From assembly GCA_965223265.1 (NCBI GenBank), contig OZ244999.1, forward strand, positions 2,880,001 to 2,944,000: a DNA stretch of 64,000 nucleotides, in the 5' to 3' direction. Both the position numbers and the translations under genes were made by a program. The notes beneath the pieces were generated by a model. That model was given only the letters and a program-made list of their open reading frames with translations, made no database searches and had not been told where the DNA came from. Shown here one piece after another: positions 4,376 to 27,761 of this stretch. The stretch's first letter is position 1, and every line of letters begins with the position of its first letter. Origin of the DNA: Planctomycetota bacterium. GTDB lineage: Bacteria; Planctomycetota; UBA8108; SXIK01.

Positions 4376-4378
4376 GGT

Positions 4379-5176: not shown

Positions 5177-5225
5177 GGCTCCTTCGTCGACAGGTAGACG
5201 CCGAACGCTCGGACTTCAGAGGTGA

Positions 5226-9700: not shown

Positions 9701-11956
9701 ATGCAGGCTGTCTTCGTCGGAGTTCGGAACGGGAGGTTGCGGGTTCGCGCTCCACCATTCATCGAGGTGTTGAAGACCTACGTTCACGGCATTGGCACGG
9801 AACTCGTGCTTGGCGCGCAGGAGATGCTTGACGCGGTTGTCAGCGCCGCGGCCGGAGAGTTTCTGCGCCGCTTTTCCGCGCGTTCCATAGAGGCAGACTG
9901 CTTCGGGCGTTGTCACCACGAGCGCATCCTCGCAGAGCAGCAGATTGCCCGCTCCGCCTCGATCCCAGAAGGTGCGCGAAAGTACCGATCCATCCTTCGG
10001 GGAGAGGACGAGCAGCGACCGGCGGCCAGGGATGAGAATGGAACCTTCCGTGACATGGCCGCGTCCAAATGGAGAAAAGCGGACCTCTTCTCCGTCGAGA
10101 TTCCAAGCGACGTCGCCGCGGTCGGGCCCGGTGAGCTTCACCGCACTGACCGAAGTGCCGCTGAGCACGCACAGATCCTCGGTGGCGCCGACGATAATGC
10201 TGTGGGCCTCGCGCAAAACGCTCCAGTTTAGCGCAGCGCTTCGACGGTCGATTGAAAAGAGGCGCGTGGAGTCCTGAGGTGCAACAACGAGATGTTCTCC
10301 CGAGTGGATGATTGGATTCGGTAGCCATCGATTGGCGGTCCGGATCGCTGCCTGCTGAGCGAGAGCATGCAGGCGGGGGTATTCAATGATCCATTCGATG
10401 ACTCCGTCTTCGCCATCCAAGGCAGCTACGAATCCTTGGTTCGTGACGACGTAGAGGCTTTGACCGATGCTCAGCGGCGGTGAACTGTAGCCGCCGAGCC
10501 CAAGGTAGTTCGAGTTGCCCGAGGAGCCTAGGTAGGTTTGCCACCGAGTACGGCCGTCAGTGTTGAGGCAAATCATGTAGACGAGAAAGTCTTGCCCGTG
10601 GCGCACGGTGATCGGCACGACCAGGTTCTCGGCATGCAGCGCCGGTGGACTGAGTAGGCACAACGGTGGCGTGCTCGCCTCTGATTCAGCTGGTGTTTTG
10701 TCGCTATGCCTGTCCGGCGGGTGCGCCGCGGCGACGATCTCACCATTCGCGGCGTCGTAGTCGAACCAGATACGCCATCGGAGTTGTCCCGAGTCGCGAT
10801 GGACGGCGACCAAGGAACTATCGTAGACGAGGTAACATTCGTCGGTGCCTAGAAGTGGAACGCGGACAGTCGAAAGTGCATTCGGTGCTTCATTTACCTC
10901 GAGCGTCCACAAGAGCGAATTGCGCTTCAAATCCAGAGCGATCGCCCGCCCGGCGTGATGCGTGAGGACGAAATCTCCCTGTGCGGCTGAAAAGTACGGC
11001 AGCGGTACGAGGCCGTCGTGTGGCATTGACGTGCCAATCTGGTCCATCGACGTGCGTAGGCGGCTGTCCGGCAGAGCGAACTGAAAGGTGACGTCTCCAA
11101 GTTCAAACGGCTGCGTTTGCGGCGACGCTGCTGGGGTTTCGGATTGAAATACGCTTCGCACTTCAGAGTCTGAGGTGTCGCTGGCGGACTTCAAAACGCG
11201 CGGTGCAGACTCAAGTGCCGCGGCTACACGTCGGCGCACGTCTTCGGCCAGCGTATCGTACGAGGGTTCTCTCGTGATGCGCTCGATCGCAGCGGTTGCC
11301 TGGCGCAGATCGGACCCGTTTTCGAGAATGATGGCCAGTTGCAAAAGTGCGAGCTGGCACTCAAGCCACTCGAGGAGGCGAGCGTTCGGAATGCGGTTCT
11401 CGGTCGAATTGCGCTGAAGAGTTTCTGCTAGTCGTTTGCACGCCGCGCGAGCTCGGTGCCAGTTTCCTGCTTCGAACGACACATCGACTTCTTCACGCAG
11501 CAGCTCGACGTCCAAGCTGTTGCCCGGATAGTCCCGCAGGAGACGATAACGCAGCAACCCGCGGCGTGCAGGCGAAAGTGTCTCGGCTTGGCTCTCCCAA
11601 AGGGCGCGCAGGGTGGCGTCTCTTCGCTCCACGTATTGCTGACGCATCTCATCTGGGAGCGAGTCAATCACCCGGGCGTAGAGGCGTCGAATGCCCAAGG
11701 CTAGCCCACGCCCGCTCTCGCCGACGCTGTTTTCGGATGCCTCTTGGGCCAGCTCTGCGTGTCGCGTCAGGCCCTCGAGGACGGCTTCCCAGTTTTCGCG
11801 CGTCGCGAACGCTTCGAGGCGCTGCCAGTGGAGCGCGTGGCTGCCACCGGTCGGCAACACCAACGCCGACTCAACGCGCTCCTGCGTCCAGCTCTCCGGG
11901 GCAGCAAAACAGACGCACGTCGCCATGACGACGATTCGAAGGTGCGATCCCGTCAT
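6626..11956 (-). CDS. Giant exported protein: PQQ-like beta-propeller repeats, TPR-like helices and a C-terminal CBM9/DOMON-like domain
   Basis: Signal-like N-terminus; repeated AxDxxxGxxxW motifs (ALDGEDGVIEW, AIDTENGLVKW, ISTTTGTERW); PPTIDGRLNDW...GWDENYFYFAFDVTDD...IYEVALPW...GLSLLLTDDD; ORF open to 12103, start uncertain. Confidence 0.85.
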   Translation of the reverse strand: MTGSHLRIVVMATCVCFAAPESWTQERVESALVLPTGGSHALHWQRLEAFATRENWEAVLEGLTRHAELAQEASENSVGESGRGLALGIRRLYARVIDSLPDEMRQQYVERRDATLRALWESQAETLSPARRGLLRYRLLRDYPGNSLDVELLREEVDVSFEAGNWHRARAACKRLAETLQRNSTENRIPNARLLEWLECQLALLQLAIILENGSDLRQATAAIERITREPSYDTLAEDVRRRVAAALESAPRVLKSASDTSDSEVRSVFQSETPAASPQTQPFELGDVTFQFALPDSRLRTSMDQIGTSMPHDGLVPLPYFSAAQGDFVLTHHAGRAIALDLKRNSLLWTLEVNEAPNALSTVRVPLLGTDECYLVYDSSLVAVHRDSGQLRWRIWFDYDAANGEIVAAAHPPDRHSDKTPAESEASTPPLCLLSPPALHAENLVVPITVRHGQDFLVYMICLNTDGRTRWQTYLGSSGNSNYLGLGGYSSPPLSIGQSLYVVTNQGFVAALDGEDGVIEWIIEYPRLHALAQQAAIRTANRWLPNPIIHSGEHLVVAPQDSTRLFSIDRRSAALNWSVLREAHSIIVGATEDLCVLSGTSVSAVKLTGPDRGDVAWNLDGEEVRFSPFGRGHVTEGSILIPGRRSLLVLSPKDGSVLSRTFWDRGGAGNLLLCEDALVVTTPEAVCLYGTRGKAAQKLSGRGADNRVKHLLRAKHEFRANAVNVGLQHLDEWWSANPQPPVPNSDEDSLHLELADLLAALSTTEAVDAIRLRLLTFRVRLENTAERKIRAAVALADALEASGQAAAALAHLHAALEVDRGATEYSPTPLLSVSSDAYLRDRIRRLRRQSAEPQRVFEAVETAAAARLAEARQKSTPILYQEVIRTYPFTRAAAAAYLDLSQRYRDRLSLQQAAGALEGYVRDYADDPQIDRGELVRVHLHLVNLLFQSGERQKAKELSLAVIEQFGDDTVDGVGNMKSGETVRDYLEPRLRDPGLIGLPAGAPKTLRAPLRKAWRSPANLEAVSRLFLVPEGDAPAALDGTFLTQSNEMVDLRGVDTGLYKWRVNLSLIPGFVLNSGTYFSTLPRHGPRALRGRFVDALLILFDRSNLFAIDTENGLVKWHVPFGENTKNLRQLREQLLHVEIDAGGLFALTSRGTLFRYSIDGERIWEVQLTYEPDHVKHVFALEKIFIFSKAPAGIHVHDATTGALLRRIAGERATLRPERIVLPGHRLLVPYRGRVDLFDLRSEQTLWSYAPDRGKGFIRTLNHFEDFPNECIILLNRAGNHPALVSISTTTGTERWRYEGFPSRRSRFSIFRDGQQLYVVHGDDHWELLALELRPGGGVDRAVIGKVWPSEPNLGTFYSSQWRLYLAPGLIIFHDPNNSISVFDRKKGTGRPEVAEQVNQFLEEKGSFASALIDGRFVVLSDGGDAAFESDTESEQRFFTDTPLLKSWLSEPNDTTVLTRLAQEFLRKDKIEEAIRLVDRSLLEEESVGGQSRQEQLLAQFVLDGLKQEHMERQFKRGRSMPEITSRRLPHPPTIDGRLNDWWDIGSRLDLNTPRYIGSIPGPKILQHWEGEEDLSGTLYTGWDENYFYFAFDVTDDVLHPYDRDAENWKGDCLIIGVDPTADKGYRQHGTDLLMTLALTVPKRRNEDKLSDEDEESGEDTDEDEKEEEDEEEGEKPDGKFAVKRKLDNTGAIYEVALPWSTFSGEFSPQNPPPKGYRFGLSLLLTDDDTGQGATKTLSLNPCHLLPYSQKSNLVWRFIVPNFFPQVRLD

Positions 11957-12383
11957 CGAGTACCTGCTGAGCGCGGCCGCGCGCTGTGTTGAAATGTCGC
12001 CGCGATCTAGAGTTTGGTCGCGCTCTAAAGTGTTGCCGCGATAAGTGTTGTATTGATTGCTTCGAAGGTCCGGCATTGTAGGTCGACGGCCGGAGAACGT
12101 CAAGAATCCGGCGGTGTGGTGCGCTGCAACACACGTGGCGCAACCACCTCTTCTCTACAACTATATACAGTGAATCGTCTCGATCGCACGTGCGGCTTGC
12201 GTGCATCTTGGCGAGTGTGCTGATTTGTCCCACCTTGCCGCGTTGACATCCGGCGCCCGTCTGACGTGCGACAGGCGTCTTGATTACCGGGCGTCGTTTG
12301 CGACGCTCGCGAGCATCCGGTGGGAGCAAAGATCGGCTTCCGAGAGCCAGGGCGAGTCGTCGAAGGCCGCCCTCAGTACGCGA

Positions 12384-13349
12384 TTATCCGACCCGCGAGC
12401 TGACTCGTTGGGGCACCGCGTTCCTGGCGACAAGACGCAGCAGATGGAGCGGCCTGGGTGTCGCATCTCCTTCGCCAGAGCAGCGAAAGATCAGCAGACT
12501 CACGCTCTCGTCGGCGCTGTCATCAGCAGTTCTGAGGGGCACTCGAAGTACTTCAAGCGGTTCCGTGCGGTCGCCGAGAATCGACGGCGGAAGCGATCGT
12601 CCTGGCGAGACCGTTCTCCAGCTGTTGCTTGCAGACCTCAGAAGTGGCGACCAGAACGCCCCTCCGGAGGTCGCCGTCGCTATGAACTGCTCGTCGTAGC
12701 CACCAAAGAGGCCCCAGCCGTAGCGGAGCACCAGCGACGTCGACGAATGCTCGACGAAAACGCCACCGAGAGCAGCGAACTGTTCGCTCAAAAAACCCTG
12801 CAGCTGGCGCAAGCGAGTGCGTCTCTCCGCGTCTGAAGATGCGTCGCCGCAACTGCCGGCGAGGTCTTCGAGGAGGTCATAGTATCGGTCATTCTTCGCC
12901 CCCGGGTTGGGGGCGGTCGTGCACTCCTTGGCGGTGTTCTCGGCTCGGCGAGATACAGCTTTGCGAACGACGGTGAGCAGATCTTTGTCGAAATCGACGA
13001 TGGGCTTCGTGATGTAGTCGAATGCTCCCATACGCAGCGCCTCGATGGCGCTGTTCATACTGCCGCAACCGGTTGCGATGATGACTTCGACCAGCGGGTC
13101 CTCTTCCTTCAACTGGCGTAGCACTTCTAGCCCATGGATTCCCGGCATAACCAAATCCAGGAGGACGGCGTCGGTCGGCTGCGAAGCGTCGCGAAACATC
13201 TCGAGAGCTTCGTCGCCACGTTCACACGACGTGACCTCGTAGTCATGAGTTTCCAGGTAGAGTTTGAGGGCATTGCGGATGAACGGTTCGTCGTCAACGA
13301 CGAGGACGCGAGGTCGTTCCGGATGCGCCTGGGCGAGTTCTTCTGGCAT
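12384..13349 (-). CDS. Response regulator: NtrC-type receiver plus an unassigned (possibly GAF-like) C-terminal domain
   Basis: VLVVDDE, VLLDLVMPG, IIATG, EALRMGAFDYITKP. Confidence 0.88.
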   Translation of the reverse strand: MPEELAQAHPERPRVLVVDDEPFIRNALKLYLETHDYEVTSCERGDEALEMFRDASQPTDAVLLDLVMPGIHGLEVLRQLKEEDPLVEVIIATGCGSMNSAIEALRMGAFDYITKPIVDFDKDLLTVVRKAVSRRAENTAKECTTAPNPGAKNDRYYDLLEDLAGSCGDASSDAERRTRLRQLQGFLSEQFAALGGVFVEHSSTSLVLRYGWGLFGGYDEQFIATATSGGAFWSPLLRSASNSWRTVSPGRSLPPSILGDRTEPLEVLRVPLRTADDSADESVSLLIFRCSGEGDATPRPLHLLRLVARNAVPQRVSSRVG

Positions 13350-13357
13350 GGTCGTCT

Positions 13358-14161
13358 TCAGTCCAATCCGCTCAACTGATCGATCATCGCTGCTACATCG
13401 TCGATTGGGATGCGTTTGGCTTCCTCGACTCGCAGAGGCTCATCCGGCCGTGAAGTCGAGTCAGACGGTGCTCCCTGGCCGCTCGTCTTGAGCGTCTCGA
13501 CGACGCTTTCCTTAACGCGACCTGCAACCTCCCTGGCGATCGCGAGAGTCAGGTTCTTCGGCAGCTCACCACTTGGTTGGCCGCCGTCGTTTGAGTTCGC
13601 GATGTGCTGCTTGAGCAGCGAGACCATCTCGGCGAGCCTCTCTTTGATCTCAGGATCGGTGGACGTCACCGGGGCCGCCGTGTGCTCTATGGATACGGGG
13701 TGCGCTGGCGAATCTGAAGCCTCTTCGGCGAGCGAAGCGTCGGCAGCGGACGCCGCCTCTTCGGGTTGTCGGGCCGGGACGGGTGCTTCAGCAAGCGGCT
13801 CTGCTGCTTTTGGGGTGAATCGTGGCTTGGCGCTGGAAGGGTCTCGCGTGTCGGAGGCGTCCCTGATCTCCATCTTGCCTGCGCTCTGAACCGAGGCGGT
13901 TGCCGGGTGCTCGCGGGCGAGCACCGCGCGAGCGGATTCCCACTCCTGCTGAACTTCTTTCAGGTCGGGAATGCGGAGATGGCGAAGCGCCGTCTGAAAC
14001 TCTTCTGGCTCCAAGGCCCGCTTCAAGTCGTGAAGGGAAGCCGAGAGTTCGCTCCACTCATGGGCGGCTTCGTCGAAGAGCTGGCGGATTTCCGTCATCT
14101 CTTCGAGCTGCTCGCTGCTTGATTCGATTCGAGTTTTCGCTGGGCGTTCGATGTCTTTCAT
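13358..14161 (-). CDS. Hypothetical protein (helical termini, Pro/Ala/Glu-rich disordered middle)
   Basis: 267-aa ATG-initiated ORF 8 bp upstream of the response regulator, same strand, protein-like composition. Confidence 0.7.
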   Translation of the reverse strand: MKDIERPAKTRIESSSEQLEEMTEIRQLFDEAAHEWSELSASLHDLKRALEPEEFQTALRHLRIPDLKEVQQEWESARAVLAREHPATASVQSAGKMEIRDASDTRDPSSAKPRFTPKAAEPLAEAPVPARQPEEAASAADASLAEEASDSPAHPVSIEHTAAPVTSTDPEIKERLAEMVSLLKQHIANSNDGGQPSGELPKNLTLAIAREVAGRVKESVVETLKTSGQGAPSDSTSRPDEPLRVEEAKRIPIDDVAAMIDQLSGLD

Positions 14162-14401
14162 GTCTCGAAAGTACGTCGATTCGGAGTGTTACGTAGATGC
14201 GACCTAAAAAGGTGTCTTTTTAAATGTACAGTGCTCTCCGGCATTTGTCACAGAGGGGGACGAACTGTAAAAGATGTAGACGAAGCTTCTCCGCCCACTG
14301 GTGTGTGCGGCGTAGGGCAGCCCTCTGCGAAAGCGGGAAAAGTTGGCGTTTGCGTAACACTGGTCGCGTGTGTACTTTTTTTTCTCGCTCGATCGTCCAG
14401 A

Positions 14402-14417
14402 AGGCGTGCATGTTGCG
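14402..14417 (+). promoter_or_regulatory. Possible sigma-54 -24/-12 promoter
   Basis: AGGCGTGCATGTTGCG has GG-N10-GC spacing and TTGC at -12, about 110 bp upstream of the CDS at 14525. Confidence 0.35.
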
Positions 14418-14524
14418 GAGGCAATCGTTACCGGACGCGCACTGCTCTCTGAGGGCATCGCCGTCCTCAATCTGAACGAAGAACCTCCACGTCGCTTCCG
14501 CTACACACACGATCGAGATTCCGC

Positions 14525-15049
14525 ATGAAAGACCAAGAAAACTCCTCAGTGTCTGCGATCTACTTCAAGGAAACGAGTTCGAAGGCGGGCGACTTTCTGC
14601 ACGAACTCAACGACCCGAAACTATTGAAGAATCGCGACATACCGGATACCGCGAAGATCGAGCTGCGGCGTCACCAAGTCGCACGACTGCGGTCCACGAT
14701 CGACGTTCTGAAGGCGAAGCGAGATGAGTTCAACCGCCGCATGGACGACTATATCGGTAATCTGACGAAGCTGGCGAACGAGCTCAGCTCTGGAGTGACA
14801 AACGGTGACACCGAAAACGACGCCGACGGTGAGGCGACGGATAGCCACTGCATCTTGACGCGTGTCCATTGCCTCCACTGTAGCGCCGAGAAGTGCTTCG
14901 AGCAGATCAAAGTCGTATTTGCTCGCGAGTCCGAAGAGTCCCTCTCAACGCCAACGGAGCTCTACGTCCTCGACCATGGAGCCTTCAAGAAGGGACATTT
15001 CTGCTGCGAGAAGTGCGGCACCGAAGGCCTCGTCATTAAGGCCAACTAA
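14525..15049 (+). CDS. Hypothetical protein: coiled coil plus putative zinc ribbon
   Basis: Heptad-like segment LRSTIDVLKAKRDEFNRRMDDYIGNL; CLHC and CEKC pairs. Confidence 0.75.
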   Translation: MKDQENSSVSAIYFKETSSKAGDFLHELNDPKLLKNRDIPDTAKIELRRHQVARLRSTIDVLKAKRDEFNRRMDDYIGNLTKLANELSSGVTNGDTENDADGEATDSHCILTRVHCLHCSAEKCFEQIKVVFARESEESLSTPTELYVLDHGAFKKGHFCCEKCGTEGLVIKAN

Positions 15050-15147
15050 CTCGTCTTCTGCTCCTCGTGTCGCTCTGAATTGCGGACTGGCAGGCGGGCG
15101 CCGTACGGTCCGTTTCTGCATGCTTCTTAGGTCGTCCCGCGTCGAAG

Positions 15148-19698: not shown

Positions 19699-19715
19699 TT
19701 GGCTTGAAGATTGCT
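19699..19715 (+). promoter_or_regulatory. Sigma-54 (RpoN) -24/-12 promoter upstream of the CHAT-secretin operon
   Basis: TTGGCTTGAAGATTGCT: TGGC, exact GG-N10-GC spacing and TTGCT; intergenic and oriented toward the CHAT gene. Confidence 0.6.
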
Positions 19716-20042
19716 TTTTCAGTTCCCCGGTCGCCGACCGAGCCTCAACGAAGCTTGGTTTTGGGCGGATTCGCATCTCCCAAACACCTATGATGAACTG
19801 TCCGGTGAGAGCAGCTCGTCGGGAGAGTAGAACAGCTCAAGTCCCCCTTGCTTGGCCTAAAGCCGGGCTCGAGTGCGATGCGGTCGGCGGCCGCTCTCAA
19901 CTTTCGCCTCCTGAAACCGGGGCAGCTCCGTGCGGCGCGAGCTGCGAGTTTCAGGACGACTCACCACGGAGGCGCGCGACTGAATCGTGGGTGCGACGAC
20001 GATCTCTTGAAGTTCACCGTGTTCTCACCAGCTTGGTTGCCG

Positions 20043-23000
20043 ATGCGTTTTGGGGCGGTCGCCGCTGTGGTTTTTGGGATGGCGCTGCCCCTGTGGGCGG
20101 CGCCTCTCGACGCCACCTCGGATGCCCGCCGCCGCGTAGCACAGGCGGAGGCGCGAGGCGACGCCCACTTTCGTAAGGCGGCGAAGCACTACAGCGCTTC
20201 GAGGCAGCGCTGGGCACGAATCGAAAAGGAAGCCGGAGAGAGGCAAGCGCACGACGTCGCTCGCGCCGCGGTCGCAGCGCGCACCGCTCTCGCCGTGCTG
20301 CTCCGCCGCCCACAGCTCCTCCCTCCGGCGACTCCTCCGCCGCCTCCGCCGCCGCTGGCGGCTCGCGCTGACGCCGCCACGCCGGTTGAACTGGAGCGCC
20401 TACTTGGATTCGTCACCACGATTGAGCGAGGATTCCTGGCGCAACAGAATCGCGAGCGTCGCGATGATCTGCTGCTCTTTGAGACCCTCGCACTCCTTTT
20501 ACGTTTGGCCGGCGAGATTCACCATGTGCAGGCAGACGCCGAGTATGCCGCAGCGCTGGCGGTGGTCGAACGTCACGTGGACTCCAAGGTGCCGGCCGCG
20601 GCTGCGGTCGACGCCGGCGCTGCTTGGCGTGATTCAAGCCGCGTTCGTCTTCTCTACAAGCTGCGGCGGTTCGACCGTGCAGCGGCGGTTCTCGAGTCAG
20701 AGAGCATTGACCTCGATGCGCTTGACTCGAAAAACGTGACGCGTCATCTCCGCGTCGTCTTCGGCCTCGCACGCTTTCGCGGCGATTTAGCTGCTGAGGG
20801 CTCGGCTCTCAAGGAGCTCCGTCGGCGCGGCGAGAAGGCAGAAGAGAGTACGCGGCTGGGCGCCCGCTTTCGCTCTTTCGCCCTTGGTCGCAAGGTTGAC
20901 CTCGTGCATGCCGCGGACACGTCGCTAGCGGTCCTTCAAGGGTTTCAGTTGCAGCCGCACGACAGTCGGCTGCTACGTCATTTCGCCGCGCTTTGTGCCC
21001 TGGAGTTGGGGGAGTACTCCCTCGCCGAAGAGATCCTTGCCGGCGGCGATCTGCGGGCGGAACGCGATTCATGGCTCCGGGCCTCTATGGCCGCTCGCCT
21101 TGGGCTCGCACGTTCTCGCCTTGGCGACGACGAGGGTGCTTTGATCGCTTTCGAGTTGGCGCGAGCGAGCACGAAAGAGCTCCACCCGAGCACGTCTTTC
21201 CAGGCTAAGTTGCTCCTCAACGAAGCCCGGGCGGGTCTTGGGCTGTGGAAATTGGAGGACGCCCACAGGCGGGCCGCCGCAGTGCTCTCCCTTGCTGACG
21301 TTTCAGCCGAATACAAAGTGCGGGCGCGTCTACTCATCGCCAACGCTCTCTACGAGCGGAGCAAAGAGGAACCTTCGCTTTTGGCCGACGTCCGGCGCAC
21401 GCACGACGCCGCGCAGCGGGACCTCGACACCGCGACGAATCTCGCGTCGGACGTCGTGGCAGAACTGCGGGCGGCGCTCGCGATTGACCGCGCCAACGCG
21501 CATCGCCTCGAGGTGCTCCGGCTGCGCGGCGGGGCGGCGATCGAGGAGCGCCGTCGTGAATTGTGGAGCGAGGCGATCCGGCTGCAGGACGACGCCTTGC
21601 GGCAAGCGGATGCGGCGAACCTGCCGCGACTTGCATCAGTTGCCGCCGGAAATCTCGGCGAGCTCTACCTCGAGAGCGGCGACATAGAGTCCGCGAAATC
21701 ATTCGTCGACTGGGCGCTCGAGCGCGCGCGTCAGCTCGGACTTTTCGAGACTGAGTGGCGCTGCCATTGGTACCGCGCTCGCATTGCCAGTGCCTCCGGT
21801 GACGAAGAGGGCGCCGACGCGCACTACAGCGCGGCTCTTGATCTGGTTGAGGGGCGGCGGGCTCGGATCGTCGATTTTGGACGCAAGAGCGGCTTCTTGA
21901 ACGACAAGAGTGCTCTCTACCGCGACCTCGTGGCGCGCGAGATCCGTCGAGGCAATGCCGCGAAGGCATTGACAATGGCCGAGCGCGCGAAGGCGCGTGC
22001 ACTCGTCGAGTCGATGGGGTGGCGACACTTTCCACTGCACGATCAGCAGGAGCGAGCTCTCCTCGGGCGATGGATGACCGCCATCGCACGCCACGAGCGC
22101 GCGTCGCAGTCGCGGGCTCCACGGCTTCTTGGGGCGGCAGCGAAGCCACTCGATCTCGACGCGGTTCGTCGGGAGCTCTCTGAGATCAAGAGCGAACTGG
22201 CGAAACGCGTACGACCAGGATCGGCGCTTGCGGCAATCGTCAACGGCGATCCTGCGGACGCCCAGACGATTCGAAACAAGCTGTTGCCTCCCGCACAAAC
22301 ACTGGTTGAGTACTTCGCACTTGAGGATTCATTGGTGGTGTTCGTCGTCAATGGGGTCGGCGTTGACGTGCGCCGTCTCGGCGTCTCCGTGACAGACGTG
22401 CAACGTCAGACGGAATCCTTTCTTCGCGGTGGTGCGGCTGACGTTGCCGCAGCGCGACGTCTCTACGATTGGCTCGTCGCACCGGTTCGGCAGCTCATGG
22501 ATCAACCGCGCGTTGTCGTCGTACCCTATGGTCCGCTGCACCAACTGCCGTTTGAAACGCTTCGCGATCACAAAGGTTCGGCTCTCATCGACGCCTACGA
22601 GATCTCGTACCTGCCGGCTGCCAGTGCGCTCAGATACGTGAACAAGACACGCCCGTGTGCTAATAAGGAGAAACTGCGGTTGCTCGCAGTCGTCGATCCC
22701 GCTACTGACTACGACCGCGACGGCGAGCCGGACCTTGTGCCGCTGCCATTCGCGCGCCAAGAGGTTCAGAGTTTTGCGTGGCGATTCGCTGAGCGCGACG
22801 TTCTCGCGGGAAACCAAGCGATCGAGTCTGAGTGCGTGCGGCGGGCGGGTGACTACGACGTCATCCACTACGCGTGCCATGGCGAGTTTCATGCCTCGCG
22901 GCCTTGGGAGTCACCCCTCTTTCTGGCCGCCGGCGACGGCGAGGACGCCGCAGCGGACGGGCGGCTTCGGGCTGGAGAGATCTACGGCTTAGACCTTCGC

Positions 23001-23300
23001 AAAAGTTGTCTGGTAACGCTTTCAGGCTGCGAGACCGGTAAGAGTGCGGTCGGGCGAGGGGACGATCCCATCAGTTTGTCGACGGCGTTCCTCCACTCGG
23101 GCGCGCGGGCGTTGATCGTCAGTCTATGGCGGGTCGAGGACGAAGCGACATCGGTGCTCATGAATATTTTTTATCGGCGTTGGCTCGAAGAGGGGCAGAC
23201 GAAATCTGCGGCCCTCCGCGACGCAAAGTTAGAAATGGCGGCCGGCAAGTTCTCTCATCCCCGTCAGTGGGGTGCTTTTATCCTCATCGGTGAATCATGA
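20043..23300 (+). CDS. Exported TPR-CHAT (caspase/separase-like) protease
   Basis: Signal-like MRFGAVAAVVFGMALPLWA; TPR helices; AERAKARAL; LYDWLVAP, VPYGPLHQLPFETL, IHYACHG (His), LVTLSGCETG (Cys), SLWRVED, HPRQWGAF; ORF open to 19848. Confidence 0.9.
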   Translation: MRFGAVAAVVFGMALPLWAAPLDATSDARRRVAQAEARGDAHFRKAAKHYSASRQRWARIEKEAGERQAHDVARAAVAARTALAVLLRRPQLLPPATPPPPPPPLAARADAATPVELERLLGFVTTIERGFLAQQNRERRDDLLLFETLALLLRLAGEIHHVQADAEYAAALAVVERHVDSKVPAAAAVDAGAAWRDSSRVRLLYKLRRFDRAAAVLESESIDLDALDSKNVTRHLRVVFGLARFRGDLAAEGSALKELRRRGEKAEESTRLGARFRSFALGRKVDLVHAADTSLAVLQGFQLQPHDSRLLRHFAALCALELGEYSLAEEILAGGDLRAERDSWLRASMAARLGLARSRLGDDEGALIAFELARASTKELHPSTSFQAKLLLNEARAGLGLWKLEDAHRRAAAVLSLADVSAEYKVRARLLIANALYERSKEEPSLLADVRRTHDAAQRDLDTATNLASDVVAELRAALAIDRANAHRLEVLRLRGGAAIEERRRELWSEAIRLQDDALRQADAANLPRLASVAAGNLGELYLESGDIESAKSFVDWALERARQLGLFETEWRCHWYRARIASASGDEEGADAHYSAALDLVEGRRARIVDFGRKSGFLNDKSALYRDLVAREIRRGNAAKALTMAERAKARALVESMGWRHFPLHDQQERALLGRWMTAIARHERASQSRAPRLLGAAAKPLDLDAVRRELSEIKSELAKRVRPGSALAAIVNGDPADAQTIRNKLLPPAQTLVEYFALEDSLVVFVVNGVGVDVRRLGVSVTDVQRQTESFLRGGAADVAAARRLYDWLVAPVRQLMDQPRVVVVPYGPLHQLPFETLRDHKGSALIDAYEISYLPAASALRYVNKTRPCANKEKLRLLAVVDPATDYDRDGEPDLVPLPFARQEVQSFAWRFAERDVLAGNQAIESECVRRAGDYDVIHYACHGEFHASRPWESPLFLAAGDGEDAAADGRLRAGEIYGLDLRKSCLVTLSGCETGKSAVGRGDDPISLSTAFLHSGARALIVSLWRVEDEATSVLMNIFYRRWLEEGQTKSAALRDAKLEMAAGKFSHPRQWGAFILIGES

Positions 23301-26300
23301 ATCGTTTGATTTCAATCCGCACAGTCGGCCCGGCGCGGCATCTGTGCCGCGCTACGACACCGCCGACGCGTGCGCGTTCTCGAGTCTGGTCGACGCTCGC
23401 TGACCAGAGCTCGGGCCGCATGCTGCGGTCTTTCGCCCTGGCTCTGAGTTTGACATGCGTTCTCTTGGCGAGTGGCTGCTCTGTGCCGTCTGACGATGTG
23501 GCCGGTGGGGCGCCCGCGGCGTCCTCGGCGGAGCCGCAGCGTGATGACACTCCACCGATCGCTGAGCCCACTTCTCCGCCACTGGTAGAGAAGGATGCTT
23601 CCGGGGACGTGAGCGACACCGAAGCACCGCTCATCTCCAGTCGCGTTGACGTCGACGTTCGCGCCGTGGCCGGTGAGGTCGCCGAGGAGGCGAGCTCGGG
23701 AAGCGCTGTGTCATTGGCCGGTTCTGATGATGAACCACTTGAGTCGGTGGTGTCGACCGACGAGCTGTCGCCTGCGCAAACGGGCGCTACGGGTGAGCGT
23801 TTGACAGACGAGGACGGCTCGGCGTTCGAAGCGGCCACTGAATCCGGCCCCGCGGCGCAGTCGGTGGACGATACCGTGGTTTCGCAAGGTAAAACCGTTG
23901 AACAGAGCCCTGCCGGGAGCGCGGTGTCGTTTCTATCGGAGGGCGATGCCGACGAAGAACCCGCGCTGCGCGACACGGCCCAACGTGTCCCGGCGCCGGG
24001 TGACCCGGCGCCGCGTGACACGGCGGCGCGGCAGCGCCTGCTCACGGCGTTCCTCCGCGGGGAAGATTTGGGCGCACAGGGGCTCGACGACGAAGGGGAG
24101 CGCTCGCAGGGTGATTCTGGCGCTCGATCAACAACCTCTGAGCCTCCTGCTGTCGACCGTCCAAACGACCAGGGCTTGGGAGATCTCCGCGGCCGACTCC
24201 TTCGCTCCGCACGCGAACGATCGGGCAGTTTGCCGCCGCCGCAGTCTCCGGGGGCAACCGAGAACGAGCCGAACCAAGGCGGTTTGCGCCAACTCAGTGA
24301 CCAACGACGCAGTGACTCACAACCCAGTGACGAATCAGCCGGGCGCCGCGACGACGGATACGGGCTTGAGGCGCCGCCACCGAGGCTGCGGTCCGGCGCC
24401 GCGCCGCCGCGTTCTTCCGAGACTCTCGATGTGAGCCCAGGCGGAAACGTACCCGGATCGGAGGGCGAGCCCGCTACCAATGGGTCGACTGCCCGTGCAG
24501 CAAACGTGAAACGTCCCGGTGACGACTTCGAGATCGTTACGCTCCATCACAAGACGGCTGGCGAGTTTCTGCGTTTCGTCCGAGAGCATTTCCCAGTGTG
24601 GATCGAAGCCGGGTATCTGCTCAAGATCGAGGGGAAAGCGCACTCGCTCATGGTGTTCGGAGTTGACGCCGAGGATGCGACGCGGAGGCGAATCATTGCG
24701 ACGCTGGAGAGGTTCGATCTTCTCGAGGTCAAGCCGACGCAAGAGTTTATCCGCCCGCGTTACATCGACGCGAAGATCGCTCTTGATGCCATCGCTATGC
24801 GTGGTCTCGCCAAGATTTGGGTCCTCACCGACGAGACCAAGACCGCTTCGTGGAAGGAAGGCGAGAACACGATGACCGCCAGCTATCGCAAGGAGGTGTA
24901 TGCGCCTCAAGAGCTTGCAGCCGGCGAGGCAGCACCGGTCGACATGCGACCGACGATTCCCTACGTCTACGAGCTCCCCTCCGTTGATCCCTTCGAGATC
25001 CCGGAGTTTTCGGCGGGCGAAGGCAACAACGAGACCAAACTCGTGCGTTTTGACCAAACATCGTCGACCGAGCGGCGCGGAGGTTTCATCGCGGTTGGTA
25101 CCGAAGAGAACATCGCGGAGATCAAAGCCTTCGTTGAGGAGATCGATCAACCTGCGAAGCTTGTGATGATCGAGGTGCAGGTCATCGAGCTCGATGCAAA
25201 CAAGTTCCTTGACCTTGGTATCGACTCGATCCAATTCGGCGAAGGACACACTGTCGGGGGCATCAGTTTGCCCTTGCCTGGTGAGCCGATCGTTCAGCCG
25301 GGTCTCGGCGACGCAGCGCGTGCCGATCCGAACCAGTTCGTCCCGGAGCTGACTCAGGAGGGGCTGTCCGCCATCTTTGATGACACGTCGGTCGATCTGT
25401 CTGGACGCTTCATCGGCAACATCCATGCTCTCGTGCGCGAAGGGAATGCCAAGATCAAAGCGCGGCCGAAGATTTTGACGCTCGACGATCGGATGAGCGT
25501 ACTGCACATCGGTCAGGATGTGCCAGTGTTCGAATCGACCAGCGTGACGCGGGACGCCACCGATGGGAATCTCGTCAGTGAAGTGCAGGAAGTCGGTACG
25601 CAGTATGTCGGATTCACCCTCAACATACGTCCACGCGTCACCGGCGGTGCCGAAGACCGCATCGCGCTTCAGGTGGAGGTGATCGTCAACGCCCTCGGTG
25701 AACGCCAACGGGTCTTCGAGGAGGATCTCGCGGGGATTCCGGCGGTCATCACGCGCCGCTATATTGGCATGCCCCTGGTGAAGAACCACCGCCCGATCGT
25801 TCTCGGTGGTTTGATTCAGGAAGAGGAGGTCGAGTCGATCAACAAGATCCCTCTCCTTGGAGACATCCCGCTGCTGGGTTACCTGTTCCGTCGCACGCAG
25901 AAGACGCAGTCGCGCAACGAGGTGATCTTCGTGCTGACGCCGCACATCCTGTCGCAGAAGGGCGTCGACCGGCAGGGGACGCCGAAGGAAAGTCCGATCT
26001 TCGACACGTTTGATAGCGCGCTCTTCAACGACAAGCACATCATCAAAGGCCGCGACGTGCTCGGTATCGACCCGATCACCGGCAATCCTGCGGTCGTGGA
26101 CGGCAAGCAGTTTTCCAAGGAAGAAGTCGTCGACCTGACGCTCCTTAACATCATCAAACAGCGTGAGCTCATTAGCAAGCTTGGCATTTTGGACGACTAC
26201 TTGAGTGACGCCCTCTCGGATCTTAATTGGCTCCAGCGTAAGTGGCCGGAGCGCACCGTCGGCTGGTGGTCGGCGCGCGACCAGGAAGTTTTCTTTCGCG

Positions 26301-26914
26301 CCTCGGCGATTCTCATTGAGAACATCAAGGAACTAAACTCCGATCTGACTTATGAGGAGCTGACGCTGCCGCGCCGCGAGATCGTGCTGCCGACTACACC
26401 ATTTAGAATCAGTCTTAGCTACGACCAGGTCCACGAGTTGCAGCTCCTCGGCGCACCTCTTCTGCGCGGCGAGCGCGTTGAACTTGACGAAGAAACGCTC
26501 GGTGTGCTGCGTGAGGCAGGCGATCGCAGCCTCTTGGACTTCGCCGAGTTTCTCGAACGCCGCCAAACGAAAGCTGAAGATCATGGCGAGCTCATTGTCG
26601 AGCTCAAGCGCTACTACGGCGGACTGAGGCCAGATAGCTCAAAACTGGAGTCGATTGCGTACGCCGAGATCTACCGCGAATTGGCCGCGGAAAAAGTCAA
26701 CTTCACAGGATTGGCGACGTACCTTCGGGAAAACCTGGCGACGCGCTATCGCGATTTCGGTGCACCCGATGTTGGCTCGTTTGCACAGGACGTGACGCTC
26801 TTCTTGAAATCTTCTGTGACTCTTTTTCATCGCGGCAAGCGGCTGCGCCAGCTTGAGACCAAGTGGATGAAGATTGGCGAACCACCAACGGAGCAAGAAG
26901 ATTCGAACCAGTAG
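23297..26914 (+). CDS. Atypical secretin (GspD/PilQ superfamily) with lipoprotein signal, long disordered N-region and C-terminal extension
   Basis: Lipobox LASG-C; IDQPAKLVMIEVQVIEL, AKIKARPKILTLD, VGFTLNIRPRV, IVLGGLIQE, KIPLLGDIPLLGYLFRR, EVIFVLTPHIL; ATGA overlap with the CHAT gene (alternative start 23420). Confidence 0.88.
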   Translation: MNRLISIRTVGPARHLCRATTPPTRARSRVWSTLADQSSGRMLRSFALALSLTCVLLASGCSVPSDDVAGGAPAASSAEPQRDDTPPIAEPTSPPLVEKDASGDVSDTEAPLISSRVDVDVRAVAGEVAEEASSGSAVSLAGSDDEPLESVVSTDELSPAQTGATGERLTDEDGSAFEAATESGPAAQSVDDTVVSQGKTVEQSPAGSAVSFLSEGDADEEPALRDTAQRVPAPGDPAPRDTAARQRLLTAFLRGEDLGAQGLDDEGERSQGDSGARSTTSEPPAVDRPNDQGLGDLRGRLLRSARERSGSLPPPQSPGATENEPNQGGLRQLSDQRRSDSQPSDESAGRRDDGYGLEAPPPRLRSGAAPPRSSETLDVSPGGNVPGSEGEPATNGSTARAANVKRPGDDFEIVTLHHKTAGEFLRFVREHFPVWIEAGYLLKIEGKAHSLMVFGVDAEDATRRRIIATLERFDLLEVKPTQEFIRPRYIDAKIALDAIAMRGLAKIWVLTDETKTASWKEGENTMTASYRKEVYAPQELAAGEAAPVDMRPTIPYVYELPSVDPFEIPEFSAGEGNNETKLVRFDQTSSTERRGGFIAVGTEENIAEIKAFVEEIDQPAKLVMIEVQVIELDANKFLDLGIDSIQFGEGHTVGGISLPLPGEPIVQPGLGDAARADPNQFVPELTQEGLSAIFDDTSVDLSGRFIGNIHALVREGNAKIKARPKILTLDDRMSVLHIGQDVPVFESTSVTRDATDGNLVSEVQEVGTQYVGFTLNIRPRVTGGAEDRIALQVEVIVNALGERQRVFEEDLAGIPAVITRRYIGMPLVKNHRPIVLGGLIQEEEVESINKIPLLGDIPLLGYLFRRTQKTQSRNEVIFVLTPHILSQKGVDRQGTPKESPIFDTFDSALFNDKHIIKGRDVLGIDPITGNPAVVDGKQFSKEEVVDLTLLNIIKQRELISKLGILDDYLSDALSDLNWLQRKWPERTVGWWSARDQEVFFRASAILIENIKELNSDLTYEELTLPRREIVLPTTPFRISLSYDQVHELQLLGAPLLRGERVELDEETLGVLREAGDRSLLDFAEFLERRQTKAEDHGELIVELKRYYGGLRPDSSKLESIAYAEIYRELAAEKVNFTGLATYLRENLATRYRDFGAPDVGSFAQDVTLFLKSSVTLFHRGKRLRQLETKWMKIGEPPTEQEDSNQ

Positions 26915-26947
26915 ACCATACAGTACGCGGCCCAGTTTCGATGAGAT

Positions 26948-27761
26948 GCATGTGATGGGGTCAACAGTCAGGCTTGCTGGCCCTGGGGCACGCTCGCTTC
27001 GCGGTCCGTCCACGGCGTTCTTCGTGCTGGCGTCTCTCTTTCTCGGCGGCTGCGCAGCGACCGAAGAAGAGCCGGAGTCGTTCAGCGAATTTCTCGAGCG
27101 CAACAGCAACCTTCTCACTGAGCTTGGCAGCTACCAAGTCGAGGTGAGCGCGAACGCGGTGCGCCGCGTCAAAGGCCTTGGTCGCGATCAGGGGCGCGCG
27201 CTCGTCCTGCATCTTCTGCGAGATCCGCAGCTCGAGAATTATCGCGTTGAAGTGGTTTTGGCACGCATCCTTGCCGAGTGGAAAGACCCGCGGGCCATTC
27301 CATATTTGCTCCAGTTCTTGCGCCATCCCGATCGCGGTGCAGCGAAGAATGCTTCGGAGGGGCTCGTCGTCTTCGGCGGCGAGACCGACGTGATCGAGGC
27401 GTTCGAGGAAATCCTTGAAGGCGACGTCGTCGGCGATCGCGAGCTGGTTGCGGACACGCTCGGCGCCATGAAGGGGCCGCGTGCGGTCGAGCTGGCAGTG
27501 CGCCACTATCCGCACGAGCCCGATCGCAACGTCCGCGGAGGCCTCTTCATGGCGGCTCAAAGTGCCAGCGAACCGCAGCGGCAGCGATTCCTCGTCGAAG
27601 TGTTGAACGACGACGATCTCAGCATGCGCGACATGGCGTGGCGGGCGCTCCAGCAGTACCGCTCATTGCCCAAAACTGACTATCGCCCGCAGGCGGACGC
27701 TCAGTCTCGCGCGGCCGCCGTCGCAGCTTTGCGCCGATGGGCAGGGGCGGAGGCGCAGTGA
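26948..27761 (+). CDS. HEAT-repeat lipoprotein
   Basis: Lipobox LFLGG-C; LARILAEWKDPRAIPYLLQFL, VADTLGAMKGPRAVE, LVEVLNDDDLSMRDMAWRAL; start approximate (ORF 26874-27761). Confidence 0.8.

Follow-up and report, generated by a model that had tools for sequence, protein, structure and literature searches.

A CHAT protease, a secretin and a HEAT-repeat lipoprotein encoded side by side in one class of Planctomycetota: a candidate outer-membrane module

Introduction

Secretins assemble as rings of 12–15 subunits in the outer membrane and constitute the gate shared by type II and type III secretion, type IV pili and filamentous phage release. Pilotins and peptidoglycan-binding proteins are, to our knowledge, the secretin helpers known to date. 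In the planctomycete DNA analysed here (the window, a stretch of 64,000 nucleotides), a secretin gene lies between the genes of a CHAT protease and of a HEAT-repeat lipoprotein. The locus raises the question of whether the three products form one system and, if so, how a protease and a lipoprotein of these types would act on the channel. An earlier note on this DNA had proposed a stand-alone channel behind a sigma-54-type promoter, with the protease in control of assembly or gating and the lipoprotein as a pilotin or adaptor.

Organisation of the locus

The trio occupies positions 20043–27761 of the window on the plus strand and reads in one direction. Its open reading frames (19848–23300 for CHAT, 23297–26914 for the secretin and 26874–27761 for HEAT) match the Pfam families CHAT, Secretin and HEAT_2, which bears out the three co-oriented genes of the earlier note. 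The genes and the motif that precedes them are:

19700–19715, plus strand: doubtful sigma-54-like −24/−12 motif, TGGC-N7-TTGCT (pattern match)
20043–23300, plus strand: gene of an exported TPR-CHAT cysteine protease (frame open from 19848, likely start ATG 20043)
23297–26914, plus strand: secretin gene (Pfam Secretin, E 1.2e-36; alternative start ATG 23420)
26946–27761, plus strand: gene of a HEAT-repeat outer-membrane lipoprotein (Pfam HEAT_2; lipobox Cys 27051–27053)

The ATGA said to join the first two genes is present at 23297–23300, where the CHAT stop codon overlaps the earliest ATG in frame with the secretin. The alternative secretin start, the ATG at 23420 immediately 5′ of the signal peptide, would turn this overlap into a gap of 119 nt. 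The first in-frame ATGs of the HEAT frame, at 26946 and 26955, lie 31–40 nt past the secretin stop (26914), in agreement with the distance of about 40 bp given previously. The three export signals listed there, one Sec-like and two lipoboxes, were likewise found when the translations of all three proteins were read by eye.

Whole-genome family searches gave no match to the T2SSE ATPase, the T2SSF platform protein or PilM inside the window, and the closest ATPase gene is 45 kb away. A Pfam scan that took in 33 of the window's 41 ORFs with 100 amino acids or more detected no secretion or pilus family besides the secretin, and no CRISPR-associated family. The statement that the 64 kb hold no GspE/F, PilB/C, pilin or T3SS genes is borne out for T2SSE and T2SSF, and for pilins and T3SS genes it extends to the 33 scanned ORFs.

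The sigma-54-type promoter was not supported. Its motif is at chance level, with one match in 64 kb against 0.81 expected and at least one match in 56 of 100 shuffles; the strict sigma-54 pattern occurs at none of 16 orthologous loci, and a loose pattern at 5 of 17 against about 2.2 expected.

Conservation and distribution

Secretin orthologues, defined by E ≤ 1e-60 with 42–67% identity over nearly the full length, occur once per genome in 53 of the 59 genomes studied from one Planctomycetota class. The synteny on which the earlier proposal depended is conserved: the CHAT gene immediately precedes the secretin gene, on the same strand, in 51 of the 53, the remaining two being cut at contig ends, and the HEAT gene lies downstream at all 16 loci examined and, in a set of 50 loci, wherever there is room for it. 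Among 50 loci placed in genome contigs, 46 have both partners and four are cut by contig ends, and the trio is intact at every one of the 46 uncut loci. The three genes are always adjacent, with frequent overlaps. The neighbours of the trio are housekeeping genes, and the flanking genes show no conservation past the order. No pilus or secretion gene adjoins the trio at the 46 complete loci, and none was seen in the conserved gene clusters of 16 orthologous loci or among the scanned neighbours. The secretin tree groups by family and genomes of 2.7–3 Mb keep the module, as expected of a core trait passed on by vertical descent.

The secretin

The Pfam Secretin family (PF00263) matches with 126.3 bits against a cut-off of 27.5. 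The protein upstream of its C-terminal domain is divided as follows:

23420–23479, plus strand: lipoprotein signal peptide, lipobox Cys codon 23477–23479 (translation, by eye)
23480–24511, plus strand: acidic, Pro/Ser-rich linker of about 345 residues (composition; no domain found)
24512–25426, plus strand: periplasmic N-domains, namely an N1-like KH fold, a second domain with a hairpin insert, and N3 (model m252dab4ca8b0)
25427–25951, plus strand: secretin β-barrel domain (PF00263, residues 711–885; a genome-wide search gives the same place)

The model was computed for a monomer and has a mean pLDDT of 66. A Foldseek search with it returned 40 PDB matches at E ≤ 0.001, all secretin chains among the matches listed, and the weaker matches listed after them are unrelated folds with E ≥ 0.02. 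GspD (5wq7) matched with E 4.7e-16, and RcpA–TadD (8odn) and PilQ (6ve2 and 6w6m) are also among the fold matches. VIA found 36 chains with Z ≥ 8 (for 5zdh, Z 10.7 and a root mean square deviation of 29.3 Å over 318 residues). By both searches on the model, the protein is a secretin with N3 and a double-walled barrel fold. The structural alignments begin at GspD residue 97–101, which corresponds to N1, and the N-domains of HofQ and XcpQ align too. The N0 domain, the usual contact to inner-membrane parts, was not found in these structural alignments.

In the secretin tree the family forms its own clade with a support of 100/100. The GspD profile TIGR02517 scores 158 bits against a cut-off of 351.35 and covers profile positions 310–594 only (N3 and barrel); two other secretins of the same genome pass it with 593 and 457 bits. 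The PilQ profile TIGR02515 scores 111.5 bits against 284.35. A canonical GspD was rejected on its score and on the lack of gspC–M, gspE and gspF alongside, and PilQ on its score and on the lack of a PilM match in the window. With both scores under the cut-offs and a clade of its own, the secretin does not show the clustering with canonical GspD or PilQ that would have spoken against the earlier note.

The lipobox Cys is present at all six loci of the order to which this genome belongs; other families have no clear lipobox, and one locus (L005) is ambiguous. The lipidation claimed for the secretin is accordingly upheld for the order and not for the entire family. The linker, which is probably disordered, is missing in orthologues outside the order, in which the mature protein begins at the first, N1-like N-domain.

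The C-terminal domain and the HEAT-repeat lipoprotein

Behind the barrel, the secretin continues into a domain of its own:

25967–26911, plus strand: family-specific helical C-terminal domain, 315 residues (60% mean column identity, 14 sequences)
26225–26269, plus strand: conserved helix, residues 87–101 of the C-terminal domain (predicted HEAT interface)

The domain was modelled with a pLDDT of 76. It has no Pfam family and no Foldseek match at E ≤ 0.001, and its best VIA match has a Z of 4.3 with a root mean square deviation of 3.8 Å over 76 residues. Weak death-fold matches at residues 185–290 (best, Z 4.3) are far under the level meaningful for helical bundles. The domain was detected in 14 of 16 sampled genomes of the class and in none of 285 Planctomycetota genomes of other classes. 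A search of 1.84 billion representatives yielded 44 matches, and in the full-length ones the domain ends a protein of 800–1100 amino acids. Its junction is strongly conserved and was modelled as disordered.

The lipoprotein matches HEAT_2 with 53 bits (E 3.8e-14), and its lipobox Cys is present in all nine orthologues checked by eye. No known pilotin family (PulS/AspS, PilF/PilW, MxiM) matched; Pfam gave HEAT_2 only, and NCBIfam only weak CpcE/F-type HEAT matches. A complex of the HEAT protein with the C-terminal domain was predicted from author-made alignments with an ipSAE of 0.77 (median of three runs), a score that expresses model confidence, against 0.00 for the best control; of 80 solved complexes 58 reach this mark, as do 2 of 110 mismatched pairs. 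At least 62% of the contacts are common to the runs, and the partner pLDDT is at least 87. The predicted interface coincides with invariant residues: helix 87–101 adjoins the invariant L86 and contains two further invariant residues, P94 and W101, together with E95, which is nearly invariant. The prediction supports a pilotin-like binding of the lipoprotein to the post-barrel segment of the secretin, and thereby lends in-silico backing to the suggested role of pilotin or adaptor.

The CHAT protease

Two features of the protease gene bear on its location and activity:

20043–20099, plus strand: Sec-type signal peptide, 19 residues with an Ala-X-Ala-like end (read by eye)
22446–23294, plus strand: CHAT (caspase-like) domain with His/Cys dyad (Pfam, residues 867–1149)

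The CHAT family (PF12770) matches with 210 bits against a cut-off of 24 (E 6.7e-62), together with a weak TPR_12 match. An N-terminal hydrophobic signal was read by eye in all 17 orthologous CHAT frames, in line with the Sec-like signal of the earlier note. In the 17 aligned sequences the HG-motif His and the GCET Cys, which we take to be the catalytic pair of CHAT proteases, are invariant, and for this reason the protease looks active from its sequence. No solved relative was found by sequence at E ≤ 0.01. Among the PADLOC defence models none matched the protease or the secretin, and the HEAT protein gave only a generic repeat match.

Secretin-less pilus loci elsewhere in the genome

Two PilB/PilC (T2SSE/T2SSF) loci without a secretin are located at 3.67 and 6.56 Mb. 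A conserved PilM–pilin cluster at 3.26–3.27 Mb comprises a sigma-54 activator, FHA proteins, a PilM-like protein, a TPR protein and two pilins, and contains no secretin, ATPase or platform gene. The eight other secretin matches of the genome each lie within about 25 kb of T2SSE/T2SSF or PilM, among them a PilQ-like locus at 2.85 Mb with pilMNOP upstream; the trio secretin does not.

In three related genomes (G021, G025 and G048) a short secretin of 419–462 residues lies 5–9 kb from the PilM–pilin cluster, the genes in between varying by genome. The trio alone is present in 52 of the 59 class genomes, the short secretin alone in three, both in one (G048) and neither in three. The two secretins are thus nearly complementary in distribution, and the link to the PilM–pilin cluster is drawn from a small number of related genomes (families f4 and f7), which are not independent. 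All four trio-less genomes tested retain PilC orthologues of the two secretin-less platform loci, and all six trio-less genomes of the class retain the PilM-like gene, with a weak match in G003 (E 2e-17, in-frame stop). Given this retention, no phyletic tie of the trio to these loci is seen.

Discussion

The results point to an undescribed way to build or control a secretin channel. The explanation that we favour, if still somewhat short of probable, is that the trio is one outer-membrane module, restricted to a single class-level and mostly uncultured lineage of Planctomycetota, in which the HEAT protein is a pilotin, a periplasmic protease acts at the channel and the ring serves dispersed type-IV-filament parts. 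The lipoprotein is predicted to clamp the conserved helix of the C-terminal domain, much as a pilotin holds the S-domain of a T2SS secretin, and would in this manner bring the ring to the outer membrane, anchor it there or stabilise it. The CHAT protease would reside in the periplasm, docked via its repeat region, and might control maturation or opening by cutting a channel component, most likely the conserved junction or tail of the secretin and otherwise a passenger protein. Such a ring probably does not work on its own and would most likely serve type-IV-filament parts encoded elsewhere. The best candidate partner is the PilM–pilin cluster, which one of the PilB/PilC loci (3.67 or 6.56 Mb) may complete. 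Three observations count against such a partner: the trio never lies beside a pilus or secretion gene, N0 was not found in the model, and no phyletic tie is seen.

The same observations would suit a ring that stands alone, without an inner-membrane machine, whose assembly or gating is controlled by the CHAT protease and whose pilotin is the HEAT protein. Such an arrangement, which we consider rather unlikely, would agree with the 46 complete loci without a pilus or secretion gene alongside, with the position of the other eight secretins near T2SSE/T2SSF or PilM (about 25 kb) as opposed to that of the trio secretin, with the lack of a detected N0, with the persistence of platform-only loci where the trio is missing, and with the predicted binding of the HEAT protein to the tail. 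However, three secretin-less pilus loci in the genome need an outer-membrane exit, and the near-complementarity with the short secretin by the PilM–pilin cluster points to a shared role. Moreover, the characterised secretins known to us all work with an inner-membrane machine, and we know of no energy source for a passive ring. With two PilB/PilC loci and the PilM–pilin cluster devoid of a secretin in the same genome, the stand-alone channel of the earlier note is not borne out.

A protease-gated variant, which we regard as improbable, would have the CHAT protease cut the junction of the C-terminal domain, or remove the domain, whereupon a closed autonomous ring assembles or opens. The logic of caspases and gasdermins would here be turned into a housekeeping envelope machine, and the weak death-fold likeness would mark the docking site of the enzyme.

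The earlier alternative that the protease is the cargo, a Sec-exported TPR-CHAT protein released to the surface or the medium via the adjacent secretin, appears quite improbable. The signal peptide in 17 of 17 sequences and the tight coupling of protease and channel genes agree with it, and T2SS substrates are sometimes encoded beside their T2SS. Against it, the locus has no pseudopilus or ATPase to push out a folded protein of 80–115 kDa, and one-to-one conservation in streamlined genomes would be expected of a structural partner rather than of an enzyme that is secreted. In addition, in the two described cases considered, Craspase and the gasdermin activators, repeat-bearing CHAT proteases are site-specific regulators.

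A death or defence pore, in which cleavage opens the secretin and permeabilises the envelope under phage attack or stress, is very improbable. Gasdermins with neighbouring CHAT proteases offer a precedent (accessible part of bioRxiv 10.1101/2021.06.07.447441), and the C-terminal domain is large, conserved and weakly similar to death folds at residues 185–290. The fold matches are nevertheless far below the meaningful level, PADLOC matches neither protease nor secretin, and a single-copy, vertically inherited unit that has housekeeping neighbours and is present in 53 of 59 genomes does not resemble a defence island. An exit nozzle for slime or polysaccharide, as reported for PilQ/GspD-type secretins of cyanobacteria and myxobacteria, is hardly credible: secretins are reported to be needed for slime secretion (PMC12475490, accessible part), but the trio has beside it no conserved gene for making or exporting polysaccharide, and the protease is left without a role.

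The outer-membrane module that we favour would add a clade of secretins that end in a large new domain and, according to the complex prediction, a new type of lipoprotein partner built of HEAT repeats. Within the literature searched, it would be the first secretin unit to include a caspase-like protease as a constant component. If the protease indeed acts on the channel, this would constitute a new principle of secretin control and a rare CHAT protease at work in the periplasm. The class-level planctomycete lineage that the module marks includes abundant marine forms with small genomes, and the module may for this reason explain part of the unusual envelope biology of this lineage.

Comparison with known systems

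No description of the trio combination was found in the literature searched, in accordance with the earlier view that it is not a described system. Its protease shares with Csx29 of the type III-E CRISPR Craspase a repeat region followed by a CHAT domain, and matches the Csx29 model NF041237 partially (E 5.3e-10, 38.8 bits against a cut-off of 300). Unlike Csx29, it has a signal peptide, and no CRISPR-associated family was found among the 33 ORFs scanned in the window.

Bacterial gasdermins resemble the trio in that a pore former with a C-terminal extension is encoded beside a CHAT gene. In the accessible part of bioRxiv 10.1101/2021.06.07.447441, 23 of 59 proteases beside bacterial gasdermins are CHAT proteases, and dedicated caspase-like proteases remove the inhibitory C-terminal peptide. 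Here, by contrast, the pore former is a secretin, all parts are exported, and the unit is core and vertically inherited, with no PADLOC match to protease or secretin. A lineage-specific protein that is not a pilotin is reported to associate with the secretin of slime secretion (PMC12475490, accessible part).

Within this order, the secretin resembles the liposecretin HxcQ of Pseudomonas aeruginosa in that it bears an N-terminal lipobox Cys itself, with a long linker behind it. HxcQ is part of a full T2SS operon. Members of the present family outside the order are without a clear lipobox and still keep the HEAT lipoprotein, which suggests that the lipid anchor of the secretin is an addition and not the piloting principle of the family; HxcQ itself is cited as self-piloted through its lipid anchor (accessible part of PMC12475490).

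PilQ with PilF/PilW/Tgl and RcpA with TadD also pair a secretin with a helical-repeat lipoprotein, and in type IV pilus and Tad systems, too, the secretin gene may sit away from pilB/pilC. The trio differs from PilQ in that pilMNOP are absent upstream, and from the TPR lipoprotein pilotins in that its TPR-bearing protein is a non-lipoprotein with a protease domain.

The closest likeness in fold is to the T2SS secretin GspD, whose chains are the best structural matches and which works with a pilotin (AspS/GspS, PulS). In contrast to GspD, no N0 was found in the present model, no gsp genes lie nearby, and a CHAT protease belongs to the unit. The lipoprotein consists of HEAT repeats with no pilotin-family match, and the short S-domain of GspD is replaced by a tail domain of 315 residues. 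As in GspD–pilotin pairs, a lipoprotein gene lies beside the secretin gene, and its product is predicted to bind the segment behind the barrel.

Organization of the trio locus

The genome under study consists of a single contig of 9.18 Mb, and positions 19848–27761 of the window are filled by three open frames on the plus strand. Pfam searches assign a CHAT domain (210 bits, residues 867–1149) and a weak TPR_12 match (22.3 bits, residues 567–629) to the first frame, a Secretin domain (126 bits, residues 711–885) to the second, and a HEAT_2 domain (53 bits, residues 121–185) to the third. The stop codon of CHAT and the first secretin-frame ATG share positions 23297–23300, which bears out the ATGA overlap described in the earlier note. 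The true start of the secretin may be the ATG at 23420, directly 5' of the signal peptide. The in-frame ATGs of the HEAT gene, at 26946 and 26955, lie 31–40 nt past the secretin stop at 26914. Export signals were judged by eye from the translation for all three proteins and, so read, agree with the one Sec-type signal and two lipoboxes noted earlier:

From ATG 20043, plus strand: Sec-type signal peptide of the CHAT frame
23477–23479, plus strand: lipobox cysteine of the secretin
27051–27053, plus strand: lipobox cysteine of the HEAT protein

Both flanks of the trio are occupied by genes unrelated to secretion. The Pfam scan places a divergent group upstream (an unassigned 220-aa ORF, a DUF72 gene, a pseudouridine synthase and a hybrid histidine kinase), and an M20 peptidase and a PSCyt2/PSD1 protein, a planctomycete hallmark, downstream. 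Elsewhere in the window, 6626–12103 on the minus strand encodes an 1825-aa protein that combines a PQQ/BamB-like beta-propeller segment with a CBM9 carbohydrate-binding domain.

Conservation of the trio

The secretin sequence, without its low-complexity linker, was run against the 60 nearest genomes. Of the 59 class genomes, the genome under study counted, 53 have a single, nearly full-length orthologue (E ≤ 1e-60, 42–67% identity); the genomes with no orthologue are G003 (completeness 80%), G020 (55%), G021 (93%), G025 (93%), G044 (79%) and G054 (81%). In the nearly complete G021 and G025, no contig bears both CHAT and secretin matches. In 51 of these 53 genomes the secretin gene is directly preceded, on the same strand, by the CHAT gene, and the secretins of G007 and G012 sit at contig ends. 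A profile search found the HEAT lipoprotein directly downstream of the secretin in all 16 fetched loci, five of which had no part in building the profile. Synteny is thus kept among the homologues.

In a collection of species-representative genomes, which overlaps the 59 class genomes and is not independent of them, both partners accompany the secretin in 46 of 50 loci. The other four are cut by contig ends, and in none of the 50 is a partner missing where there is room for it. The 50 records, two of which bear other phylum labels, all come from metagenome-assembled Planctomycetota or unclassified bacteria, and these cross-genome counts are counts of relatives and not of independent events. 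In many loci the secretin and HEAT genes overlap by 1 or 4 bases, as judged from longest-ORF calls. The genes around the trio are kept only within the order of the genome under study; in the small-genome family f6 of the same class the trio is flanked by housekeeping genes, among them a tRNA-synthetase-like gene and one for a release factor.

Just 3' of the trio in f6, a convergent gene (6333–7361, plus strand, of the fetched locus L007; counterparts in L006 and L010–L014) encodes an actin/MreB-like protein with weak matches to MreB, Salactin and Actin. It is adjoined in most such loci by an unassigned gene of about 390 aa.

The secretin represents a separate clade

The model of the secretin has middling confidence (mean pLDDT 66), and its only clear matches in the PDB are secretins. 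Foldseek returned 40 matches at E ≤ 0.001, the best of which is GspD (5wq7, 4.7e-16), and the structural alignment search VIA returned 36 chains with Z ≥ 8, the best being 5zdh (Z 10.7, rmsd 29.3 Å over 318 residues). None of the curated NCBIfam models reaches its cut-off: GspD scores 158 bits (cut-off 351), PilQ 111.5 (284), SctC 108 (238) and MshL 105 (250), and the GspD match spans N3 and the barrel only. Among the other secretins of the genome, two exceed the GspD cut-off and one is PilQ-like. By these sequence models the protein belongs to the secretin superfamily but not to GspD, PilQ, SctC or MshL as curated.

A tree was computed from N3 and the barrel of 16 trio secretins and seven of the eight paralogues in the genome; the paralogue at 2.161 Mb, which had no BLAST match to the probe, was left out. 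The trio secretins form one clade on a long stem (support 100/100), and the tree does not fix their relation to the paralogues. The clade and the scores below both cut-offs set the protein apart from canonical GspD and PilQ.

No N0 domain was found in full-model structural alignments or at the N-termini of orthologues, since the alignments to GspD begin at GspD residue 97–101 (N1) and the mature secretin, outside the order of the genome under study, starts right at the N1-like domain. The description of the secretin as lipidated holds for this order, in which a lipobox and an acidic linker of about 345 residues were read by eye in six of six loci. It does not extend to the other families, which have a plain signal peptide and no linker; locus L005 is ambiguous.

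A conserved C-terminal domain and its predicted partner

The 315 residues past the barrel (25967–26911) show 60% mean column identity and 56 invariant positions across 14 sequences. Modelled alone, this domain is helical (pLDDT 76), with its first 20 residues strongly conserved yet disordered in the model. No Pfam family matches it or recurs among the 14 members, and Foldseek gave no match at E ≤ 0.001. In a phylum-wide sample, profile searches detected the domain in 14 of 16 class genomes and in none of 285 from other classes. A search of 1.84 billion representative proteins gave 44 matches at E ≤ 0.001; the full-length ones are all proteins of 800–1100 aa with the domain at the end, and the remainder are short pieces.

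The best match in a wide VIA search has Z 4.3 and an rmsd of 3.8 Å over 76 residues. Of the 50 matches listed, about 19 are death-fold domains (pyrin, death/DD, DED and CARD) that align to residues 185–290 with Z 3.0–4.3. These values are too low for a death fold to be claimed in this part of the tail and far below significance for a helical bundle. As no more than a lead, the likeness is curious beside a caspase-like protease.

The lipobox cysteine is present in nine of nine HEAT orthologues checked. The mature lipoprotein and the C-terminal domain, both supplied as alignments, were submitted to complex prediction together with three controls, and the median of three runs was taken. The pair scores 0.77 and the best control 0.00. 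Among solved complexes 58 of 80 attain this mark, and among mismatched pairs 2 of 110; these rates are a rough guide, as the calibration excludes user-made alignments. The runs have at least 62% of contacts in common, with a partner pLDDT of at least 87. The predicted interface comprises domain residues 18–22, 87–101 (a helix at 26225–26269) and 143; it takes in the invariant L19, F20, N21, D22, P94 and W101 and adjoins the invariant L86. The prediction supports binding of the HEAT lipoprotein to the secretin C-terminal domain.

Pilotins bind the S-domain of secretins, and the predicted geometry resembles that of a pilotin holding the segment after the barrel. Judged by their titles, the solved complexes AspS-GspD, PulS-PulD and RcpA-TadD are among the fold matches of the secretin. 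The suggestion that the HEAT protein acts as a pilotin or adaptor gains from this modelling, with a score of 0.77 vs 0.00 and an interface on invariant residues.

The CHAT protease

An N-terminal signal peptide is found in 17 of 17 orthologous CHAT frames, in keeping with the export claimed for the protein, and all aligned sequences retain the HG-motif His and the GCET Cys. In the order of the genome under study a long repeat region brings the protein to about 1085 aa; the f6 proteins have a shorter repeat region, a different N-terminal part and about 750 aa. The architecture is the common TPR-CHAT type and nothing beyond, according to a protein atlas, and no solved relative was found by sequence at E ≤ 0.01. 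Csx29 was rejected as an identity (38.8 bits vs a cut-off of 300). A second CHAT gene of the genome, at 7.82 Mb, is not near a secretin. Conservation suggests that the periplasmic protease is an active, site-specific enzyme and a fixed part of the unit.

Promoter and terminator signals

The sequence TGGC-N7-TTGCT at 19700–19715 is the sole match to the sigma-54 motif in the window, vs 0.81 expected, and 56 of 100 shuffles contained one or more matches. A slightly relaxed form of the strict pattern was found upstream of CHAT in none of 16 orthologous loci. In a looser scan (GG and GC fixed, up to three mismatches), 5 of 17 loci, two of them from one genus, had a motif 109–275 nt ahead of the open frame, vs about 2.2 expected. 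The genome has two rpoN genes, and a sigma-54 activator gene (292–1359, minus strand; AAA+ and HTH_8, without a receiver domain) lies 18 kb from the motif. The sigma-54 promoter proposed earlier is possible but is not supported by these counts, which are at chance in the window. Scans for sigma-70 promoters (1 found vs 0.9 expected) and terminators (9 vs 8.0) also gave chance results.

Beside the activator gene, an Mla-type lipid-transport operon (MlaD, ABC ATPase, MlaE) occupies 2339–5176 on the minus strand.

Secretion and pilus genes elsewhere in the genome

Whole-genome family searches gave nine secretin hits, 12 T2SSE ATPase hits, seven T2SSF platform loci and five PilM-like hits. No T2SSE, T2SSF or PilM hit falls within the 64-kb window, the first two in agreement with the earlier note, and a Pfam scan of 33 of the 41 window ORFs of at least 100 aa found no further secretion or pilus family besides the trio secretin. 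The other eight secretins all have an ATPase and a platform gene, or a PilM gene, within about 25 kb; these loci include a pilM...pilQ-type operon at 2.85 Mb and a PilM locus at 2.15–2.17 Mb with two secretins and an ExbD gene.

The latter locus (L069, G000:C1:2154000–2173900) is led by PilM and encodes two MshL/Amuc_1098-like secretins of 1054 and 924 aa, the ExbD-like protein and a 958-aa protein whose only match is a weak one to TPR; an ATPase is absent. A secretin pair of this type, about 9 kb apart, recurs in small f6 genomes. At another locus (L071:2697–16277; G000:C1, about 2233696–2247276), a giant frame of 4527 aa has a C-terminal part that is a canonical GspD (593 bits, cut-off 351) and lies about 21 kb from an ATPase/platform pair.

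Three further loci carry pilus-related genes without a secretin:

3.67 Mb: PilT-PilB-PilC locus
6.56 Mb: PilC-PilB-PilB locus
3.26–3.27 Mb (fetched locus L076, G000:C1:3259000–3278900, ORFs 631–15091): conserved cluster

The cluster at 3.26–3.27 Mb encodes an S13 D-Ala-D-Ala carboxypeptidase, a sigma-54 activator (FHA and GAF), a double-FHA protein, a PilM-like protein, a 267-aa protein of unassigned family, a TPR protein of 875 aa and a pair of pilin-like proteins, of which one bears a laminin-G domain; secretin, ATPase and platform genes are all absent from it. Synteny of the core genes (for the carboxypeptidase, activator, double-FHA and PilM-like proteins) holds in all four other genomes fetched. 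Matches to the TPR and pilin genes were obtained in G049 and G023 only and not in the trio-less G021 and G025.

No phyletic tie of the trio to these parts was found. PilC orthologues of both platform loci, at 3.67 and 6.56 Mb, are present (61–66% identity) in five of five genomes tested, four of them trio-less. The PilM-like gene of the cluster, matched in 56 of 61 genomes, is present in six of six trio-less class genomes, weakly so in G003 (E 2e-17, in-frame stop).

A different, short secretin of 419–462 aa has no orthologue in the genome under study. Among 61 genomes searched, its orthologues (E ≤ 1e-60) are in G021, G025, G044, G048 and G060 only. Three copies were located:

L077:2298–3557, minus strand: short secretin
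L078:1634–2986, minus strand: short secretin
G048:C319:25248–26450: short secretin

Table. Distribution of the trio and the short secretin among the 59 class genomes.
Trio and short secretin: 1/59
Trio only: 52/59
Short secretin only: 3/59
Neither secretin: 3/59, all ≤ 81% complete

In G021 and G025 the short secretin is divergent from the PilM-pilin cluster and 5–9 kb upstream; in G048 it is likewise a few kb upstream of the cluster and shares a contig with the PilM-like gene at a distance of about 14 kb. The near-complementary spread of the trio and the short secretin points to a link between the trio and the PilM-pilin cluster, and would fit the trio having taken over from the short secretin as the exit of that pilus-like system. 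This pattern carries serious caveats, since the genomes concerned are closely related (families f4 and f7) and one has both secretins. A shared operon of short secretin and cluster was not seen in G021 and G025, where the intervening genes are unrelated (a rhomboid gene in one, an amidohydrolase in the other).

Proposed function and comparison with known systems

The best-supported reading of the trio is an outer-membrane module. The secretin ring would form the gate, and the HEAT lipoprotein is predicted to grip the tail and to target or anchor the ring. The protease would act at the channel, either on the conserved junction or tail of the secretin or on a passenger protein.

To our knowledge, every characterised secretin works with an inner-membrane machine. 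Because of this, and because the genome has secretin-less pilus parts, a ring served by parts encoded elsewhere is ranked above one that stands alone; we give the dispersed machine a little less than an even chance. A ring working without an inner-membrane machine, as the lack of platform genes near the trio had suggested, we consider rather improbable. Two rivals to an outer-membrane module with a protease acting at its channel, in which the protease would be the cargo of that channel or the ring a polymer nozzle, we consider unlikely. A death or defence pore is disfavoured by PADLOC, whose defence models matched neither the protease nor the secretin.

A precedent for a protease acting at a channel is described for bacterial gasdermins, where a CHAT protease activates the adjacent pore former by removing a C-terminal peptide (bioRxiv 10.1101/2021.06.07.447441); for the trio it would serve as an analogy and not as evidence. 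In full-text literature outside subscription journals, we found no description of a combination of CHAT domain and secretin, and no work joining CHAT domain, secretin and Planctomycetes. HxcQ is described as the exception to a need for pilotins or accessory proteins that nearly all secretins share (PMC12475490). Secretin-lipoprotein pairing is a known principle; the tail domain, the HEAT-repeat partner and the fixed CHAT protease are new.
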